From positions 6,410 to 70,409 of the forward strand of contig CAYXFX010000003.1 of NCBI GenBank assembly GCA_964464405.1: a stretch of DNA of 64,000 nt, in the 5' to 3' direction. The translations under genes and the position numbers were made by a program. The notes below the pieces were generated by a model. That model worked only from the letters and a program-made list of their open reading frames with translations, did not search any database and had not been told where the DNA came from. Shown piece after piece: positions 2,789 to 53,932 of this stretch; position 1 is the first letter of the stretch; each line of letters starts with the position of its first letter. The DNA comes from an uncultured Candidatus Saccharibacteria bacterium (lineage in GTDB: Bacteria > Patescibacteriota > Minisyncoccia > UBA11713 > 2-01-FULL-45-33).

Positions 2789-4819
2789 TTATTTTAAAAA
2801 CGGAATGAGCAAAAGCGCAACAATATTTACCACCTTTATCATCGGATTTATCGCGGGGCCAGCCGTGTCTTTGTATGGGTCACCGACTGTGTCTCCGGTT
2901 ACAGCGGCCTTGTGCGCATCCGATCCTTTCCCGCCGTAATTTCCCTCTTCAATATATTTTTTAGCGTTGTCCCACGCGGCACCTCCTGATGTCATTGAAA
3001 TTGCAAGAAAAAGCCCTGTCACTATTACTCCGACGAGTAAACCTCCTAAAGCTTTTGGCCCCAACCAAAATCCTACGATTATTGTCACCAAAATCGGTAA
3101 AATTGCCGGAATTATCATTTCTCGTAAAGCCGCTTTTGTAACAATGTCTACGGTTGCGGCATAATCCGGCTTGGCAGTGCCTTCCATTATTCCTTTTATT
3201 TCCCGAAATTGCCTGCGCACTTCTTCGACAACGCTCCCAGCGCTTTTTCCAACCGCGCGCATTGCCATTGAGGCAAAAATATACGGGAGCATTCCTCCTA
3301 AGAAAAGGCCTGTAATTACCAATGGGTCCGAAAGCTCGAAAGTAATTTCAAGCCCTTTTGAAGCAAGATCTGCTGCGTAAGCTGCAAAAAGAACCATTGC
3401 CGCAAGCCCTGCTGAAGCGATCGCGTATCCTTTCGTTACAGCTTTTGTTGTATTCCCGACAGCGTCTAAAGGGTCAGTAATATCGCGCACCTCTTTTCCT
3501 AACCCTGCCATTTCCGCAATTCCTCCAGCATTATCAGTAATAGGGCCAAACGAATCTATCGCGACAATTATCCCAGTCATAGACAGCATAGAAACTCCGG
3601 CTACTGCAATTCCGTAAAGCCCGGCAAAATTAAATGCAGTATACGCGCCGACTGAAATTAAAATTGCGGGGAGCGCCGTTGACTCAAGCGACATCGCAAG
3701 CCCCATAATAATATTTGTGCCATGCCCAGAAAGAGAACTTTTTGCGATCGATTTAACGGAACGAAATTTTTTTGAAGTGTAGTATTCAGTAATGAGCACC
3801 ATTCCTAACGTAACAGCAAGACCAATAAGAGATGCCCAGAAATAATTTATAAAATTTCCGGGGATTTTAACAACATTAAATAATCCTTGTGAAGTCGGGT
3901 TTTGAAAATTAACAACTAAATTTTTTACGGCTAAATAAAATCCTCCAGCGGATAAAATTCCCGCCGCTAACAGTCCTTTGTAAAGAGCGAGCATAATGCT
4001 CTCTGGGCCGGACACTCGTACAAAATAAAAGCCGATTATTGAAGCCCAAATGGCTACGCTTCCCAAAAGCAAGGGAAGTAAAATTGCTCCATTTGCTCCC
4101 GTAAAAATCGATGCTCCTAAAATCATTGCGGCAATTAAAGTTACTGCATAAGTTTCAAAAAGGTCGGCCGCCATACCCGCGCAATCTCCGACATTGTCTC
4201 CTACATTGTCTGCAATAACCGCCGGATTTCGAGGATCGTCTTCCGGGATTCCCGCTTCCGTTTTTCCCACAAGATCTGCGCCCACATCAGCCGCTTTCGT
4301 ATAAATTCCGCCTCCCAAGCGTGAAAACACAGATATTAATGAGCCTCCGAATCCCACCCCGACTAGCGCGAAGATATCTCCTGTCCATTTCCAAAATCCT
4401 GCAACAACCAAAAGGCCTAAACCAACAACCAAAAATCCTGTTACTGCCCCTCCTTTAAAGGCAAGTAAAAAAGCCTCTTTAAGCCCCTTCTTTGCCCCCT
4501 CCGTAACGCGTGAATTTGCCATGACTGCCGTCTGCATTCCAAGAAAGGCGGCGAGAGAAGAAGCAATGGCTCCTATGATAAAACCAATCGCGATGTTTAT
4601 GCCAAGCGACAACCAAAGTAAAATTGCGACAACAACTCCGACCAAAAAAACGGATTTAAACTGGCGTTTAATAAAAGCGCGCGAACCTTCGCGTATTGCG
4701 GAAGCGATCTCGCGCATTTTTTCATCGCCGTCGTCTGCTTTTTTGACACTGCGCCTCAAATAAAGCGCAAAAAGTATTGAAACAACTGCAGTTGTAATTG
4801 CAAAATTCTCGATAGTCAT
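2789..4819 (-). CDS. hppA: Membrane-bound H+-translocating pyrophosphatase
   Basis: 676 aa polytopic protein with [55 protein letters not shown], a diagnostic V-PPase motif. Confidence 0.9.
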
Positions 4820-5112: not shown

Positions 5113-5150
5113 ACCCCTTACTAAGGGGGAAGGGGCTGGGGAAAGGGGTC
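5113..5150. repeat. GC-rich palindromic element, copy A (forms the 3' tail of the DUF559 gene)
   Basis: ccccttaCtaagggggaaggggctggggaaaggggtct; 36/37 identical to 5517-5553. Confidence 0.6.
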
Positions 5151-5435
5151 TGTAATTGATTTAATTTTTTCTAAAACACCATCAATCTTTTCAAAAACAC
5201 TTTGATTTAAAACTCGAATTGTTCTAATTCCAAGCGATTTCATAAACCTTTTTCTTTCATTGTCATACAACTTGTTTTCCAGAACTGCGTGTTGTTCACC
5301 GTCTAGTTCAACAACAAGCTTTAATTCTGGACAATAAAAATCAGCAACATATAAAATTTGTTCCGCATTGGTTAAATTGTTCCGTAAAATTCTACGTTTA
5401 TTTATCTGGGATTTTTTATTGAAAATTTTTGTCAT
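5121..5435 (-). CDS. DUF559 / Vsr-fold endonuclease-domain protein (104 aa)
   Basis: LRNNLTNAEQILYVADFYCPELKLVVELDGEQH...ERKRFMKSLGIRTIRVLNQSV matches the DUF559 signature. The C-terminal ...DPFPQPLPP is encoded by the GC-rich repeat. Confidence 0.7.
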   Translation of the reverse strand: MTKIFNKKSQINKRRILRNNLTNAEQILYVADFYCPELKLVVELDGEQHAVLENKLYDNERKRFMKSLGIRTIRVLNQSVFEKIDGVLEKIKSITDPFPQPLPP

Positions 5436-5502: not shown

Positions 5503-6414
5503 TTATTTCCCCTTCCCCCTTAGTAAGGGGGAAGGGGCTGGGGAAAGGGGTCTCATTTTCCCATGAAACGCCTTGTGCACCTCGTGAAGTTGTTTGTCCG
5601 TAAAGTGAGTATAAATTTGGGTTGTTGAAATATTTGCATGGCCCAACATAGACTGCACGGAGCGAAGGTCGGCGCCATTTTGCAAAAGATCCGTCGCAAA
5701 AGCATGGCGCAGGACATGAGGGGTGACTTTTTTTACGATTCCCGCCTGCACAGCGTATTTTTTTATCATCCGTTGAATCGAGCGGGGAGTCATTGGGAAA
5801 AGAAGATCGTTTTCAATGTCCCCACGCTTTTCTAAATAATTATTTATCGCACTTTTGGCTCTGTCCGAAATAAACACAACGCGGATTTTCCCGCCCTTTC
5901 CGCGCACAGCAAATTCTCCGCTACGCAAGCTTACGTCGTCATTTTTTAAATTTGCAAGCTCCGAAATGCGAAGTCCGGTTGAAAAGAAGAGCTCTAAAAT
6001 TGCGCGGTCTCGAATCGATTTATTAGAGCCGCCTTCGGCGGAAGCCGAAGGAGCAGAAAGCAACCTCTCCAAATCCGCATGATCTAAAAGATCAAGATTC
6101 CTTTCTTTAAGTTTTGCAAGTTCAATTTTTTCGGCATCCAGGGATTCAATATTTTTTTTGGAAAGATATTTAAGAAACATCCTTAGTGCGATCACGTGGT
6201 AATTTTGGGTAGATTTATCTAAATTTGCGCGGTTTAAATGAAGCCTGTACTGCCTTACAAGCTCTTCCGAAATATCGGCAGGGGACTTAATTTTTGAAAA
6301 TTCCAAAAACTTCTTTAAATATCTGTCGTAATTTTCAACCGTCTTTATCGCCCGCCCTTTTTCAATTTCTAAATATTCAAGAAATTCTTTTTTAAGTGTG
6401 TCCAGATTAGCCAT
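5503..6414 (-). CDS. Tyrosine site-specific recombinase, XerC/XerD family
   Basis: C-terminal catalytic region LRHAFATDLLQNGADLRSVQSMLGHANISTTQIYTH. The last ~15 aa (RPLSPAPSPLLRGKGK) are encoded by the GC-rich palindromic element. Confidence 0.85.
   Translation of the reverse strand: MANLDTLKKEFLEYLEIEKGRAIKTVENYDRYLKKFLEFSKIKSPADISEELVRQYRLHLNRANLDKSTQNYHVIALRMFLKYLSKKNIESLDAEKIELAKLKERNLDLLDHADLERLLSAPSASAEGGSNKSIRDRAILELFFSTGLRISELANLKNDDVSLRSGEFAVRGKGGKIRVVFISDRAKSAINNYLEKRGDIENDLLFPMTPRSIQRMIKKYAVQAGIVKKVTPHVLRHAFATDLLQNGADLRSVQSMLGHANISTTQIYTHFTDKQLHEVHKAFHGKMRPLSPAPSPLLRGKGK
5509..5553. repeat. GC-rich palindromic element, copy B (ccccttccccc-ttagtaa-gggggaagggg + ctggggaaaggggtct)
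   Basis: 11 to 14-bp perfect stem; direct repeat of 5113-5150. Confidence 0.6.
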
Positions 6415-14868: not shown

Positions 14869-15843
14869 ATGAACACCAAATATGTTACCGGCTTAATTTT
14901 AGTAGCCATAGGCGGGGCTACAGTTTGGTTTTATTTAAACGACCTTCAGTTTCAATCAGCCGAAAAACAACAGCCATCCGAAGACGATCAAATTTTAACA
15001 ATTGCCGAACCGTTCGGGAAAAACCCGATGTTTGGTCCGCTATACGAATCTGCGGATAAGGAATATGGCACTTTAATAAGATTTTTGGCCTCAAAACTGG
15101 AAAGTTACGGCATTAAAGAAGGAAAATTTATTGCAGTAGAAAATTCGTATGAAGCAAGCTTGTTGCTTAGGCAAGGAAAACTAGATATTTACGTAGACAG
15201 TCCATTTCCGGCATACATTGTCGCGAAACTTACGGGAGCAGAACCTTTAGTAAACAGATGGAAAAGGGGGCAAGAAAAATATCACAGCAATATTTTTGTA
15301 AAAAAAAGTAGTGCCATTAAAACACTTGACGATCTGAAAGGCAAAATGATGGTTTTTGACAAACCGGACTCTACTTCAGCATATTTTCTCCCGAAAGCTG
15401 AACTTATTAAGCGTGGATACAAAATGACACAAAAATCAGGACCGAGAGATTCGACGTCCTTAGACGAAATAGGATATTATTTCGCCGGAAGTGATGTAAA
15501 AGCAATGGAAGATATGCAAAATGGAGTTGCGGCTGCGAGCGCGCAAAATGACGCCGATTTTAAAACTTTAGCAGGAGATCAGGCAGGAGATTACCGGTTT
15601 ATTTTTTCAACAGTCGATGTATTTCGACATGTTTTAGTTTTACGCCCGGGCATTGATCCTAAGTTAAAAGAAACAATTAAACAAATCTTGCTTGACATGG
15701 ATAAAGATCCTGAAGGCCAAAAGGTGCTTAATGATCACAAAAAAACCAAAAAATTCGAGGAATTTAAGCCAAGCGTTGCTGAAGCCTTTAGGGGCATAGC
15801 GGAGCTTTCTTCACTCGTCGAAAAAGAAATTATCGGACAATAG
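14869..15843 (+). CDS. PhnD/SsuA-like ABC-type substrate-binding protein (membrane anchored)
   Basis: N-terminal TM/signal peptide; periplasmic-binding-protein type 2 fold signatures (KLDIYVDSPFPAYIV...MVFDKPDSTSAYFLP). Confidence 0.55.
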   Translation: MNTKYVTGLILVAIGGATVWFYLNDLQFQSAEKQQPSEDDQILTIAEPFGKNPMFGPLYESADKEYGTLIRFLASKLESYGIKEGKFIAVENSYEASLLLRQGKLDIYVDSPFPAYIVAKLTGAEPLVNRWKRGQEKYHSNIFVKKSSAIKTLDDLKGKMMVFDKPDSTSAYFLPKAELIKRGYKMTQKSGPRDSTSLDEIGYYFAGSDVKAMEDMQNGVAAASAQNDADFKTLAGDQAGDYRFIFSTVDVFRHVLVLRPGIDPKLKETIKQILLDMDKDPEGQKVLNDHKKTKKFEEFKPSVAEAFRGIAELSSLVEKEIIGQ

Positions 15844-15852
15844 TCTGCCCAA

Positions 15853-16767
15853 TTGTTTTCAAACTTTTTTACAAATCTCTCCATCCGAAACAAACTTCTT
15901 TTCGGATTTTCGATCGTTGTTTTATTTTTTCTTTTTTTTGCCGGATACTTTTTAAGGTCAGTAAATAATCTAAACAAAACCTTTGACGATCTGGAGCGTC
16001 AATATAAAATTCTTAGCGCCTTGTCGATTCTTCAACTAAGCAACAACAAATTTGCCAACAACGCCAAAGCTTATATTTTAACGAATGACAAAAAATGGGA
16101 AGATGCTTATGACGAAGCGCTGATCCAGTATGATTTGGCTTTAAATGAATTTTATGCAATTGAAACAAATGGCGAAATTCAGTCTCAAGTTAAAAGATTT
16201 GCGTTTCTTATTTCGCAACTTAAAGGCACCGAACTCTTGATTCTTTCTAAAGTCAGGAGCGGCGAGACTGAAAATGCGAAATCTCTTTTTGACTTAAATT
16301 ATGAACAACGGCAAAATGAAGCCTCGCGGCTTATTTTAGATACAGTTGAAGACAAATTTAGCGACGTTACTTCGAAATTCAATTCCGGGCATAACATTGT
16401 AAAAAAAGCGAGAAACACCCTGCTAACTTTGTTTGCGGTAGCAACGGTTGGACTGCTGCTATTATCCTTTTGGATTTCTTCATTCATTTCCGAGCCCATT
16501 AAAGAATTGGCTGAAACAATCAAAAAAATAGCAGACGGAGATTTAAAGATTCGTGCAAGAGTTTCCTCAAAAGACGAGGTAGGCATTCTTGCATCCGATC
16601 TAAACGAAATGACAAAACGCATGGAAAAATCATATCAAGATTTGGAAGAAAAAGTCCGAATTCGCACGAAAGATCTGGAAGATAAAGTAACGGAGCTTGA
16701 AAATCTAAGGGAAACAATGATAAAAACCGTAGAAACTCTGGAAAAAATAAAAGAAAAAGATCAGTGA
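15853..16767 (+). CDS. HAMP-domain signalling protein (sensor-like, no kinase domain)
   Basis: TM - periplasmic domain - TM - HAMP (PIKELAETIKKIADGDLKIRARVSSKDEVGILASDLNEMTKRME) - coiled coil. Confidence 0.6.
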   Translation: MFSNFFTNLSIRNKLLFGFSIVVLFFLFFAGYFLRSVNNLNKTFDDLERQYKILSALSILQLSNNKFANNAKAYILTNDKKWEDAYDEALIQYDLALNEFYAIETNGEIQSQVKRFAFLISQLKGTELLILSKVRSGETENAKSLFDLNYEQRQNEASRLILDTVEDKFSDVTSKFNSGHNIVKKARNTLLTLFAVATVGLLLLSFWISSFISEPIKELAETIKKIADGDLKIRARVSSKDEVGILASDLNEMTKRMEKSYQDLEEKVRIRTKDLEDKVTELENLRETMIKTVETLEKIKEKDQ

Positions 16768-27685: not shown

Positions 27686-28639
27686 ATGGACGACCAAAAA
27701 CAAAAAGACATATTAGAAACTTACGCGAATTTGCCAGCTGATTTGCAAAACGCACTTTTCGCGCCGCAAACTACGTCCGCAATACGAGAAATTGGAAAAA
27801 AGCACGAACTTACTTTAGATAAAGTCGGAGTTTTGGGAGATGAAACCGGGGCTGTAATGATGGGGCTTGCTCCGCTTAACGAATTTATTAAAAATCTTTC
27901 CATAAAACTCGAGGTGGACCGCACGAAAGCGCGTTCGATTGCAGAAGATATAAACGCGCAGATTTTTAAACCTGTTAGAGAATCATTAAAACAAGTTCAC
28001 CACGTTGTTTCTACAACAGAACCGACTCAAGGCGCCTCTAAGGAAATACCCCCTCCTACTCCCCCTTATAAAGTGGGAGATAATCAGTTTTCCCCTCCTT
28101 TACAAGGAGGGGCCGGGGAGGTAATAACGACCAAACCAGAGGAAAAACTTGAAAGAGAAGTCGTTCCAAAAAGCGAAACCAAAAAAATTCCCCCGCTTCC
28201 CAAAGAAATGATTGACGGGCTTAAATCTAAAATTCCCTCATTTATTGGGGGCAGTTCAGACTCTCCGAAAACCGTAACTTTTGAGCAATCAACAGTTGGT
28301 GGAGAAATTAAAAAACCCGAGCCTCCTGAAAATTTGCCTGTAGAAATTGTTTCCCCGCCGGCCTCCTTGAAGTCCGACTTCAAATCCCAAAAGAAGTCGG
28401 ACTTCATCCCAGCCGGCGAACCAACAATTTTTGCCAAAAAACTGCCGGAGGAGGAACCTTTGGTAATAAAGCCCATGCCCAACCGATTCGGCATGAGCGC
28501 CGCAGAGCCTTCCCAAACTGCTTCGCTGCAATCAGAGTTAGAAAAAGAATTAGGCGGCTCCATCCGTAGAGGAACAGCATCTCCGGACATTCCGCGCCCA
28601 CCCAAAAAAAACGATCCGTATAGAGAACCGATCGAGTAA
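27686..28639 (+). CDS. Pro-rich hypothetical protein carrying in-frame palindromic repeat insertions
   Basis: Conserved-looking N-terminal domain, then a low-complexity Pro-rich region that includes the GC-rich elements (28047-28121) and the KSDF palindromes (28369-28405). Confidence 0.5.
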   Translation: MDDQKQKDILETYANLPADLQNALFAPQTTSAIREIGKKHELTLDKVGVLGDETGAVMMGLAPLNEFIKNLSIKLEVDRTKARSIAEDINAQIFKPVRESLKQVHHVVSTTEPTQGASKEIPPPTPPYKVGDNQFSPPLQGGAGEVITTKPEEKLEREVVPKSETKKIPPLPKEMIDGLKSKIPSFIGGSSDSPKTVTFEQSTVGGEIKKPEPPENLPVEIVSPPASLKSDFKSQKKSDFIPAGEPTIFAKKLPEEEPLVIKPMPNRFGMSAAEPSQTASLQSELEKELGGSIRRGTASPDIPRPPKKNDPYREPIE

Positions 28640-52665: not shown

Positions 52666-52699
52666 AGGGACATCCAGCGCGGTGTCCCTTTCTTTTTTT
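52666..52699 (+). terminator. Rho-independent terminator (agggaca-tccagcgcgg-tgtccct + TTTCTTTTTTT)
   Basis: 7-bp stem plus T-run immediately after the stop. Confidence 0.55.
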
Positions 52700-52756
52700 A
52701 ACCCATTCTTTTTACCCACTTTATTATTTTTTTATTCACATTTTTTCAATGTTCGA

Positions 52757-52780
52757 AATAAAAGCGATCGCCTTTATTTT
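52757..52780. promoter_or_regulatory. 24-bp palindrome AAATAAAAGCGATCGCCTTTATTT overlapping the -35 (TTGACA 52780-52785) of the regulator gene; candidate operator
   Basis: 23/24 self-complementary. The same palindrome occurs at 53367-53390, and a half-site at 2727-2758. Confidence 0.5.
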
Positions 52781-52814
52781 TGACATAAGATTTTTGGGTT
52801 GATAAAGTTAAGTA

Positions 52815-53366
52815 ATGGCTAGATATAGCATAGTAAAAGAAAAAATTTTATTACTTTTGTTGGGAGGAGCAGCTTTACTGTTGGCATATAACCCCAAAAA
52901 ACAACTTAGAGTAATCGAACAAATTTCTAAAGAGTGGAAAAAAATTAACAGAAGAAAACTTTATTACTTTATAAATCAATTTAAATATGAAAGGCTTGTA
53001 GATTTTAGAGAAAACAAAGACGGAACAATAAAAATGGTTTTAAACGATGATGGCAAAAAAAGGGCCTTAGTTTATAGCTTAGATCAGTTGGAACTTAAAA
53101 AAGAACGGGTTTGGGATAAAAAGTGGCGCATTGTAATATTTGATATACCCGAAAAGAAAAAAAGAGGCAGAGAAGCACTAAGGTTGAAACTGAAGGAGTT
53201 GGGGTTTAAGGAATTACAGAAAAGTATTTTTGCTTTTCCATATAAATGTAAGGATGAAATAGATTTTGTAGTCGAAGTGTTTGAGTTGAGGCAATACGTG
53301 AGGTTTATTGAAACTTCAAATCTTTTCCACGACGCAGATTTAAGACTTCATTTCAATCTTGTCTAA
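52815..53366 (+). CDS. PaaX-like transcriptional regulator (N-terminal wHTH + W-x2-W-R-hhhF-DIPE middle domain), short form
   Basis: KEKILLLLLGGAALL...; WDKKWRIVIFDIPEKKKRGREALRLKLKELGFKELQKSIFAFP resembles the PaaX middle domain. Confidence 0.45.
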   Translation: MARYSIVKEKILLLLLGGAALLLAYNPKKQLRVIEQISKEWKKINRRKLYYFINQFKYERLVDFRENKDGTIKMVLNDDGKKRALVYSLDQLELKKERVWDKKWRIVIFDIPEKKKRGREALRLKLKELGFKELQKSIFAFPYKCKDEIDFVVEVFELRQYVRFIETSNLFHDADLRLHFNLV

Positions 53367-53390
53367 AATAAAAGCGATCGCATTTATTTT
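53367..53390. promoter_or_regulatory. Second copy of the 24-bp GCGATCGC-centred palindrome, 1 nt after the regulator stop and upstream of tsaE
   Basis: AAATAAAAGCGATCGCATTTATTT (23/24 self-complementary), followed by TTGGAC...TATAAT promoter-like hexamers. Confidence 0.5.
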
Positions 53391-53449
53391 GGACATCAAC
53401 AAAAGTTTCTTAAAATATAAAAAGTATAATTTGTAAAAAATATAAGAAA

Positions 53450-53932
53450 ATGAAAATTACGACAAAAAGTGGTAAAGAAACAAAAAAATTTGGCGCAAAA
53501 ATTGCAAAAGAAATTTTAAAAGAAAAAAAATGGGGGAAAGCTGTTGTTGTAAGTTTGGAGGGTGATCTTGGCGCTGGCAAAACAACCTTTACACAGGGAT
53601 TTGCAGAGGGTTTGGGTATCCACGAAAAAATCCAAAGCCCGACTTTTGTGATTTTAAAAGTGTATTCAATTACCCCTCCCAGCCCTCCCCTTGTAAAGGG
53701 GAGGAGTTCCAAAAAAATCGGGAGGTTTTCAAAATTAATCCATGTCGACGCTTACCGCTTGCGATCAAAAGATTTTAAAGCGCTTAATTGGGAAGATTTT
53801 ATTCGCGATGAAAAAAATATAATTTTAGTCGAGTGGGGAAATAAAATAAAAAAAATCTTACCGAAAAATTCGATAAGAATAAAATTCGAACACGGAAAAA
53901 ATTTTAACCAGCGCATGATAAAAATCATTTAA
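53450..53932 (+). CDS. tsaE: tRNA threonylcarbamoyladenosine biosynthesis protein TsaE, carrying an in-frame palindromic-element insertion
   Basis: P-loop GDLGAGKTTFTQG, SPTF...DAYRL. The region between them is about 17 aa longer than in E. coli YjeE and is encoded by the GC-rich palindrome (ITPPSPPLVKGRSS). Confidence 0.75.
   Translation: MKITTKSGKETKKFGAKIAKEILKEKKWGKAVVVSLEGDLGAGKTTFTQGFAEGLGIHEKIQSPTFVILKVYSITPPSPPLVKGRSSKKIGRFSKLIHVDAYRLRSKDFKALNWEDFIRDEKNIILVEWGNKIKKILPKNSIRIKFEHGKNFNQRMIKII
53672..53706. repeat. GC-rich palindromic element inside tsaE (acccctcccagccctcccc-ttgtaa-aggggaggag)
   Basis: 9-bp perfect stem cctcccctt/aaggggagg; about 80% identical to the reverse complement of 5509-5553. 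Confidence 0.55.

Follow-up and report, generated by a model that had tools for sequence, protein, structure and literature searches.

The repressor PaaX of Escherichia coli recognises a site of the form TGATTC(N27)GAATCA and represses its own promoter by steric hindrance (PMC9493321). Here we describe a PaaX-like gene and an associated inverted repeat in a 64,000-nt stretch of DNA from an uncultured Candidatus Saccharibacteria bacterium (assembly GCA_964464405.1, contig CAYXFX010000003.1, positions 6,410 to 70,409; hereafter the window). The gene encodes a protein of 183 aa and is bracketed by two copies of an inverted repeat centred on CGATCG, a third copy of which stands alone about 50 kb away. 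To our knowledge, recognisable regulators are very scarce in Patescibacteria, which do not grow without a partner, and a literature search found nothing on PaaX-like proteins in this group, on such palindromes or on this module. Comparison across genomes indicates that the repeat is most likely the protein's own candidate binding site. We hold with moderate confidence that the protein, as a PaaX-like dimer, represses the leaderless promoter of its own gene by way of a tripartite, CGATCG-centred site of ~38 bp, together with a second site beyond the gene and a few solo sites elsewhere. The features concerned are as follows:

52749 to 52786 (38 nt): upstream inverted repeat, axis at 52767/52768, 24-nt core at 52756-52779; the shared 47-nt repeat extends to 52795
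52780 to 52808, plus strand: predicted sigma-70-type promoter, consensus match 10/12, TG present
52815 to 53366, plus strand: regulator open reading frame (ORF), 183 aa, with a Pfam PaaX_M (PF20803) match
53359 to 53396: downstream inverted repeat, axis at 53377/53378, core at 53366-53389, best palindrome at 53360-53395
2712 to 2758: solo copy of the 47-nt repeat, core at 2719-2742, axis at 2730/2731, 40/47 nt identical to the upstream copy
2789 to 4819, minus strand: H+-pyrophosphatase-like ORF, function assigned by eye

The link between gene and repeat was examined from both directions. Starting from the protein, eight independent loci were compared (the window and loci L174, L175, L177, L179, L183, L184 and L185), which represent several Patescibacteria lineages as well as Thermodesulfobacteriota-like contigs. 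A CGATCG-centred inverted repeat is present on both sides of the gene in 8/8, with arm sequences that are specific to each lineage and with flanking axes 610-774 nt apart wherever both were measured. In L179 the two palindromes, of 48 bp and 44 bp, are perfect and built around ACGATCGT; in L185 a stretch of 33 nt (TTGTACCAACTCCTCACGATCGGATAAGGTTGG) recurs unchanged on either side of the gene. The central sequence shrinks to CGATCG, or is GCGACCGC, in some lineages (L179, L177, L185 and L010). Where the flanking copies are asymmetric enough to be oriented, they form direct repeats (37 vs 25 in L185, 34 vs 27 in L184). Starting from the motif, a metagenome scan for ATAAANGCGATCGCNTTTAT gave 120 loci, in 11 of which a PaaX_M homolog directly adjoins the motif; these adjacent proteins are 36-55% identical to the window protein, and some of their contigs have a GC content of 45-50%. 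Since the gene is only ~0.6 kb long and is estimated to occur once per genome, an adjacency of 11/120 would not be expected by chance. A scan of a genome collection with a half-site and its extension returned mostly matches to the highly iterated palindrome (HIP1) of cyanobacteria, along with L053, inside a coding ORF, and L010, a Saccharibacteria locus in which the gene has its own 44-bp palindromes on both sides. Together, the protein-first and motif-first tests indicate that the gene-repeat link is real and old.

The repeat was first noticed in a sequence-only reading of the window, which described a 24-bp palindrome, 23/24 self-complementary, in two full copies and one half-site. Its three copies do exist, although each begins one base earlier than that reading had placed it: a window search located the 24-mer AAATAAAAGCGATCGCCTTTATTT exactly at 52756-52779, with 1 mismatch at 53366-53389 and with 3 mismatches at 2719-2742, compared with 0.00 matches by chance in 100 shuffles. 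Self-complementarity had been slightly overstated, as 11/12 pairs, or 22/24 bases, are complementary, and the supposed half-site is a whole, degenerate palindrome within 2712-2758. The unit itself also proved larger than 24 bp, being an imperfect inverted repeat of 38-47 nt whose tripartite ~38 bp are unlike an ordinary 24-bp operator. A repeat finder grouped the copies into a 47-nt family at 2712-2758, 52749-52795 (85% identity to 2712-2758) and 53359-53405 (64%). Each contains a 36-38-bp imperfect palindrome with the outer ends ATGTY...GACAT, and their consensus is ATGTYnAAAATAAAnGCGATCGCnTTTATTTnKGACAT. The upstream copy is self-complementary at offsets 1-4, 6-12 and 16-19 from its axis. 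The downstream copy lies 610 nt further on, in direct orientation relative to the upstream one; its core begins at the final base of the stop codon, and its palindrome (53360-53395) overlaps the last two codons of the regulator gene. The solo copy at 2712-2758 is situated 30 nt past the stop of the H+-pyrophosphatase-like ORF and 100 nt ahead of the start (2612) of a 90-aa ORF, both on the minus strand. A 75-aa ORF that starts within this copy (2712-2939) was dismissed as spurious; it overlaps the pyrophosphatase-like gene at its 3' end, on the opposite strand. The window scan revealed no further long CGATCG-centred palindrome besides these three, and at 3 copies in 64 kb the element does not behave there as a generic, HIP1-type repeat.

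The architecture of the 183-aa protein resembles that of a short PaaX. PaaX_M, the Cas2-like central domain of PaaX, matches residues 98-170 (2.1e-20, 73 bits vs a cutoff of 24), and the N-terminus has no match in Pfam. In an AlphaFold2 (AF2) model, a three-helix winged helix with a three-stranded wing is followed by a ferredoxin-like domain. Foldseek aligned this model with PaaX (8a39) over 149 columns (probability 1.00, E 5.7e-3) and its C-terminal domain with Cas2 and VapD, and a sequence search of the PDB gave a weak Cas2 match only. Searches of Pfam, NCBIfam and PADLOC yielded PaaX_M and Cas2 matches only, with no HUH/Y1 match. The PaaX equivalog TIGR02277 scores 25.2 bits against a cutoff of 264.55, and the Cas2 model TIGR01573 covers 40 residues only, at 25.8 vs 24.5 bits, a match that accounts for the 'Cas2' label in public annotations. 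The protein stops at residue 183 and has no C-terminal effector (phenylacetyl-CoA) domain. No paa genes occur in the gene tables, which reach 9-10 kb to each side of the gene in L002 and 5-10 kb to each side in L174-L179 and L183-L185; the neighbourhood gene tables contain no cas1, and the window repeat search detected no CRISPR-like array. With no effector domain, a low TIGR02277 score and no paa genes nearby, the protein lies outside PaaX proper; with two domains in 183 aa, no cas1 nearby and no CRISPR-like array, it is no CRISPR Cas2 either.

More than 1,100 homologs at 50-58% identity are distributed across Patescibacteria, mostly annotated as 'Cas2' or 'PaaX', and a profile search returned 731 cluster representatives at E <= 1e-30. 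A second branch, 36-43% identical, occurs in contigs whose relatives carry the name Deltaproteobacteria or Thermodesulfobacteriota. The residues W100, D101, W104, R105, D110, P112, R119, Q135, S137, C145 and E154 are invariant, and the Cas2-like domain retains the conserved Asp of the Cas2 beta-1 strand. Between the two branches, the N-terminal domain and the repeat arms both vary; the Cas2-like domain and the CGATCG centre are conserved in both. The closest genome is a metagenome-assembled genome of Candidatus Giovannonibacteria, GCA_016176325.1 (L002). Over the surrounding stretch that was read, its DNA matches the window perfectly apart from an 84-nt deletion, so it has no value for footprinting. 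The deletion is in frame within the regulator gene (L002 10001-10468) and takes out 28 residues (FINQFKYERLVDFRENKDGTIKMVLNDD), which correspond to the last part of the predicted recognition helix plus the wing; the two palindromes are unaffected.

The upstream repeat coincides with the predicted promoter of the gene. The -35 element TTGACA (52780-52785) lies inside the right outer arm and is followed by a 17-nt spacer and a TG-extended -10 element, TAAAGT (52803-52808). It had been claimed that the 24-mer overlaps the -35; the 24-mer itself ends one base before TTGACA, and it is the extended palindrome that contains this element. As the ATG at 52815 is only 7 nt past the -10, the mRNA is predicted to be leaderless, and the upstream palindrome would then not be transcribed along with the regulator gene. 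In seven of eight loci the distance from dyad to ATG is 33-52 nt. Read by eye, L093 and L185 each have a TGnTATAAT box that touches the right arm or runs into it; a strict promoter scan did not call these boxes.

The symmetry of the repeat also resembles that of a PaaX-type operator. Among 16 sites from the protein-first loci, complementary bases are found in 16, 15, 16 and 13 sites at offsets 1-4, in 7-11 sites at offsets 5-9 and in 11-15 sites at offsets 10-19. A PaaX-type dimer would call for just such a centre with two outer patches ~30 bp from each other. In sequence, the complementarity at offsets 10-19 and the -35 in the right arm agree with the layout of a PaaX-type operator, whose inverted half-sites are spaced ~27-30 bp and overlap the promoter under control. 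The inner arms are not complementary in L185, L174, L175 and L177, and the 33 nt common to both copies in L185 include non-complementary spacers. The tripartite symmetry and the conserved non-complementary spacers of L185 fit recognition of double-stranded DNA better than recognition of a hairpin.

From this arrangement we infer how the module might operate. The 183-aa protein would be a short DNA-binding protein of the PaaX type, with a winged helix and a Cas2-like dimerisation domain and no effector domain, and its dimer would bind the ~38-bp CGATCG-centred inverted repeat. The two winged helices may touch the outer half-sites ~10-19 bp from the dyad (ATGTY...GACAT in the window genome), placing the conserved core of the dimer opposite the invariant CGATCG centre. 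Because the upstream site contains the -35 of the leaderless promoter, binding there would exclude RNA polymerase and the regulator gene would repress itself. The directly oriented site past the stop, part of the same module, could be a second operator that acts by looping or as a roadblock, or an insulator from neighbouring genes. The few solo sites of each genome, here 2712-2758, would be additional binding sites.

In the metagenome sample, solo loci outnumber gene-flanking loci (26 vs 4), usually with one solo copy per 7-14-kb locus; a rough estimate is about ten solo sites per genome. At six loci (L114, L116, L170, L070, L135 and L165), a solo palindrome lies between a nitroreductase gene and a NUDIX gene, 57 nt after one stop codon, and the dyad is 34 nt ahead of the following ATG. 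The regulator gene of that lineage has an equal dyad-to-ATG distance, a hint that the site may be a genuine second target. A different kind of arrangement occurs in low-GC metagenome contigs (L102 6276-6353, L123 1290-1361, L148 3382-3458 and L112 5621-5711), where two different GATCG-centred palindromes with unrelated arms stand 10-20 nt apart, reminiscent of the doublets formed by repetitive extragenic palindromes (REPs).

Gene neighbourhoods were compared to delimit what the sites might control. The gene has different neighbours in every Patescibacteria genome examined, following dnaJ, recR or secA in some and separating dnaE from rnhB or ftsW from murG in others, and in the Thermodesulfobacteriota-like contigs it has the stable synteny DUF362, gene, truA. 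Three related Giovannonibacteria-type contigs keep the order ruvB-pilB-X-Y-tsaE-polA-ABC, and their Y-tsaE spacer has neither the regulator gene nor a CGATCG palindrome; ordinary terminators occupy it instead. The downstream repeat is retained where the next gene is convergent (L144, L125, L154, L166, L183 and L184), which assigns this copy to the regulator gene and not to tsaE-polA. In the window it ends ~7 nt upstream of the would-be -35 position of tsaE, whose TATAAT box is at 53425-53430. No homologs of the 90-aa and 100-aa proteins encoded near the solo copy, of hppA or of tsaE were found beside palindromes at other loci. The sequence-only reading had proposed autoregulation plus control of tsaE/polA and of a small Cys-protein operon. 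The autoregulatory operator is the part that fared well, as the palindrome is tied to the PaaX-like gene and placed at its promoter; orthologous regulators in relatives, which it had suggested inspecting, are flanked by a motif of the same kind in all protein-first loci, and the motif-first loci also retrieve the gene. The wider regulon gained nothing from comparison: the downstream copy goes with the regulator gene, tsaE and polA are not conserved as neighbours, and neither the 90-aa nor the 100-aa protein has a homolog encoded beside the motif at any other palindrome-bearing locus. Either tsaE-polA or the small Cys-protein operon may be under local control, though comparison lends this no support.

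Autoregulation is not the only way to read these data, and several observations weigh against it. Confidence in the AF2 model (predicted local distance difference test) is above 90 for the C-terminal domain and moderate, at 54-69, for the N-terminal domain. The strict promoter scan found no clear promoter at the gene in L185, L093, L010 or L179, so that the window alone is supported in this respect, and 11 of 56 classifiable solo copies (by crude ORF calls) lie between convergent genes, where there is no promoter. Window copies 1 (52749-52795) and 3 (2712-2758) have 40/47 nt in common, some of them outside the palindrome, which resembles copying rather than the independent evolution of sites. 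Many copies are also far longer and more perfect than an operator requires, at 44-48 bp; those of L179 have no mismatch, those of L010 a single one at the centre. Finally, arm differences between copies in the same genome are compensated in L010, L166, L184, L093 and L096, which independent half-site binding does not predict: in L010 a C>T change is paired with G>A, every arm variant in L166 and L184 is self-complementary, three distinct palindromes fall within 900 nt in L093, and two within 144 nt in L096. The compensated arms, the solo copies between convergent genes and the bases shared outside the palindrome would fit if the repeats were hairpin elements, formed in single-stranded DNA or as cruciforms, and if repeat-gene-repeat were a self-contained relocating unit like a recombination cassette or like REPs and their associated tyrosine transposases (REP/RAYT). 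The protein, with its predicted winged helix and Cas2-like domain, would then recognise or process the hairpin, and the solo copies would have been dispersed or left behind rather than serving as operators. We regard this as rather unlikely. Covariation of the arms outside the searched pattern is strong over 112 motif-first sites (77.8% paired vs 64.5% when shuffled and 37-46% when slid; score 0.332 vs 0.135, reached in 0/500 shuffles), and the outer arms are at least 7/10 complementary in 69/122 hits, against ~1% expected. On their own, these values suggest a hairpin, but covariation across lineages is also expected of a dimer that co-evolves with its half-sites. Arm changes are likewise compensated at the orthologous spacer between nitroreductase and NUDIX genes, where the position of the palindrome is kept between species at 62-81% protein identity. 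Template-switch symmetrisation of quasi-palindromes could yield compensated changes without selection for a hairpin. Perfect palindromes of 38-48 bp fold at -13 to -19 kcal/mol (z < -8), but in the window DNA hairpin energies are only -3.7 kcal/mol for the upstream copy (z about -1), -8.8 for the downstream copy (z -4.7) and -3.7 for the solo copy (z -1.1), so that copies 1 and 3 fold no better than shuffles. Moreover, the non-complementary inner arms of L185, L174, L175 and L177 would spoil a hairpin, not a protein site.

Signs of relocation are similarly divided. The flanking copies of L185 and L184 are direct repeats, the gene is not syntenic among Patescibacteria, three relatives lack the whole unit at the syntenic position, some solo copies are found between convergent genes, and different palindromes can stand side by side in pairs. 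Identical 40-bp copies adjoin unrelated genes (radical S-adenosylmethionine enzyme, peptidyl-prolyl isomerase) in Thermodesulfobacteriota-like contigs, one of them between hutU and hutH, and the Cas2-like domain has kept the Asp of the Cas2 beta-1 strand. On the other hand, the unit contains no transposase or recombinase and the protein has no HUH/Y1 match, the copy number is low, the gene is stably syntenic in the Thermodesulfobacteriota-like contigs, and the empty sites hold no solo copy, though those relatives are distant. An IS200-like element was rejected for want of an HUH motif or a Y1 match, and a dif/Xer-like site was also rejected: the recombinase arms of dif abut the central region, and here conservation dips beside the centre. 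That repeat-gene-repeat constitutes a new kind of self-contained unit, in which the winged-helix-Cas2-like protein recognises, symmetrises or moves CGATCG-centred hairpins, travelling with its direct-repeat copies and leaving or seeding solo copies, is an idea we consider doubtful. If it were true, the unit would parallel REP/RAYT or recombination cassettes without an HUH protein, and could shed light on the origin of iterated palindromes of the GCGATCGC type.

Palindromes that are invariably intergenic and mostly lie soon after a stop codon (11-111 nt from stop to axis) might instead punctuate transcripts, as bidirectional terminators, insulators or mRNA-stabilising hairpins, without being bound by the gene product. 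The terminator scan did call some copies terminator-like (L093, L010 and L179), and solo copies separate convergent or tandem genes, one of them within the apparent hutU-hutH operon. We nevertheless think this improbable: ordinary terminators would not keep an invariant CGATCG across phyla, nor bracket one gene family in 8/8 genomes. None of the window copies was called as a terminator by the scan, and they lack a G+C-rich stem followed by a U-tract; the gene upstream of the regulator already has a canonical terminator at 52666-52699. The predicted promoter of the window lies downstream of the dyad, which would leave the upstream copy outside the mRNA, and L093 and L185 look similar by eye. 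In addition, no Rfam family reached its gathering score anywhere in the 64-kb window. A signal related to methylation or restriction (GATC, CGATCG or GCGATCGC), or a mere coincidence of low-complexity, A+T-rich flanks, is very hard to credit. Both GATC and CGATCG, which are present in the centre, are recognised by known methyltransferases that have been considered in connection with HIP1 (PMC4390886, PMC5861425), and the genome scan was dominated by cyanobacterial HIP1 matches. However, only 3 of the 14 CGATCG sites in the window are palindromic beyond the hexamer, all of them in this element, and GCGATCGC is not hyperabundant, with 4 occurrences in 64 kb (0.89 expected), 3 of which are within the repeat. 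Shuffles exclude chance, the outer arms are complementary far more often than expected, as given above, and the association with one gene would be left unexplained.

A conserved and exactly delimited candidate site makes the function of the protein directly testable and would make its sites mappable in hundreds of uncultured genomes. The family is large, common in the ultra-small bacteria of the candidate phyla radiation and routinely labelled 'Cas2' or 'PaaX', a widespread misannotation that could be corrected. The bracketing on both sides, the compensatory arms and the HIP1-like centre are unusual, and the element may be more than an operator.

Other repeats were noted during this work. A 38-nt G+C-rich direct repeat (5114-5151 and 5516-5553, 97% identical, 402 nt apart) brackets a 104-aa ORF on the minus strand (5121-5435), DUF559-like by eye, which lies directly downstream of an ORF resembling a XerC/D-type tyrosine recombinase (5503-6414, minus strand). 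The repeats encode the C-terminal tails of these two ORFs, and the 104-aa ORF is the second small gene in the window to be bracketed by direct repeats. A G+C-rich palindromic motif, CCCCTCC...GGAGGGG, forms an inverted pair at 28091-28121 and 53675-53705; the latter copy falls within the tsaE coding sequence and is translated there as a PPSPPLVKG-type stretch, and a similar sequence occurs in an intergenic spacer of L181. In L185, a Vogelbacteria contig, a Y1_Tnp (IS200-like) transposase gene (15620-16312) is located ~5 kb from the regulator module and is probably unrelated to it.

Four described systems invite comparison. HIP1 of cyanobacteria shares the octamer GCGATCGC, which is central in many copies, but HIP1 is hyperabundant and also found in coding sequence, whereas here the octamer is rare, strictly intergenic and contained in a ~38-bp palindrome. 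With REP/RAYT systems (REPINs), the module has in common that one gene is bracketed by a palindromic repeat that is also found as solo intergenic copies, and that the arms evolve by compensation. It differs in that the bracketed protein is no HUH/Y1 (IS200-like) transposase, that copies seem to number tens at most compared with hundreds for REP, and that the palindrome is dyad-symmetric about CGATCG, without a 5' GTAG-type tetranucleotide and with direct flanking copies. Cas2 and VapD share the ferredoxin-like fold of the C-terminal domain and the conserved Asp after strand 1; here this domain is fused to a predicted winged helix, and CRISPR Cas2 is a stand-alone protein of ~90 aa encoded beside cas1 and an array. 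Unlike the phenylacetyl-CoA-responsive PaaX of E. coli and Pseudomonas (PDB 8a39, 3L09), the window protein has 183 aa, no C-terminal effector domain and no paa genes nearby, its sites have a conserved CGATCG centre and lie on both sides of the gene, and its family occurs in Patescibacteria and Thermodesulfobacteriota-like contigs. Like PaaX, it is predicted to have an N-terminal winged helix followed by a Cas2-like central domain, and its candidate sites consist of widely spaced inverted half-sites, the 39-bp span of the PaaX site being the size of the window repeats.

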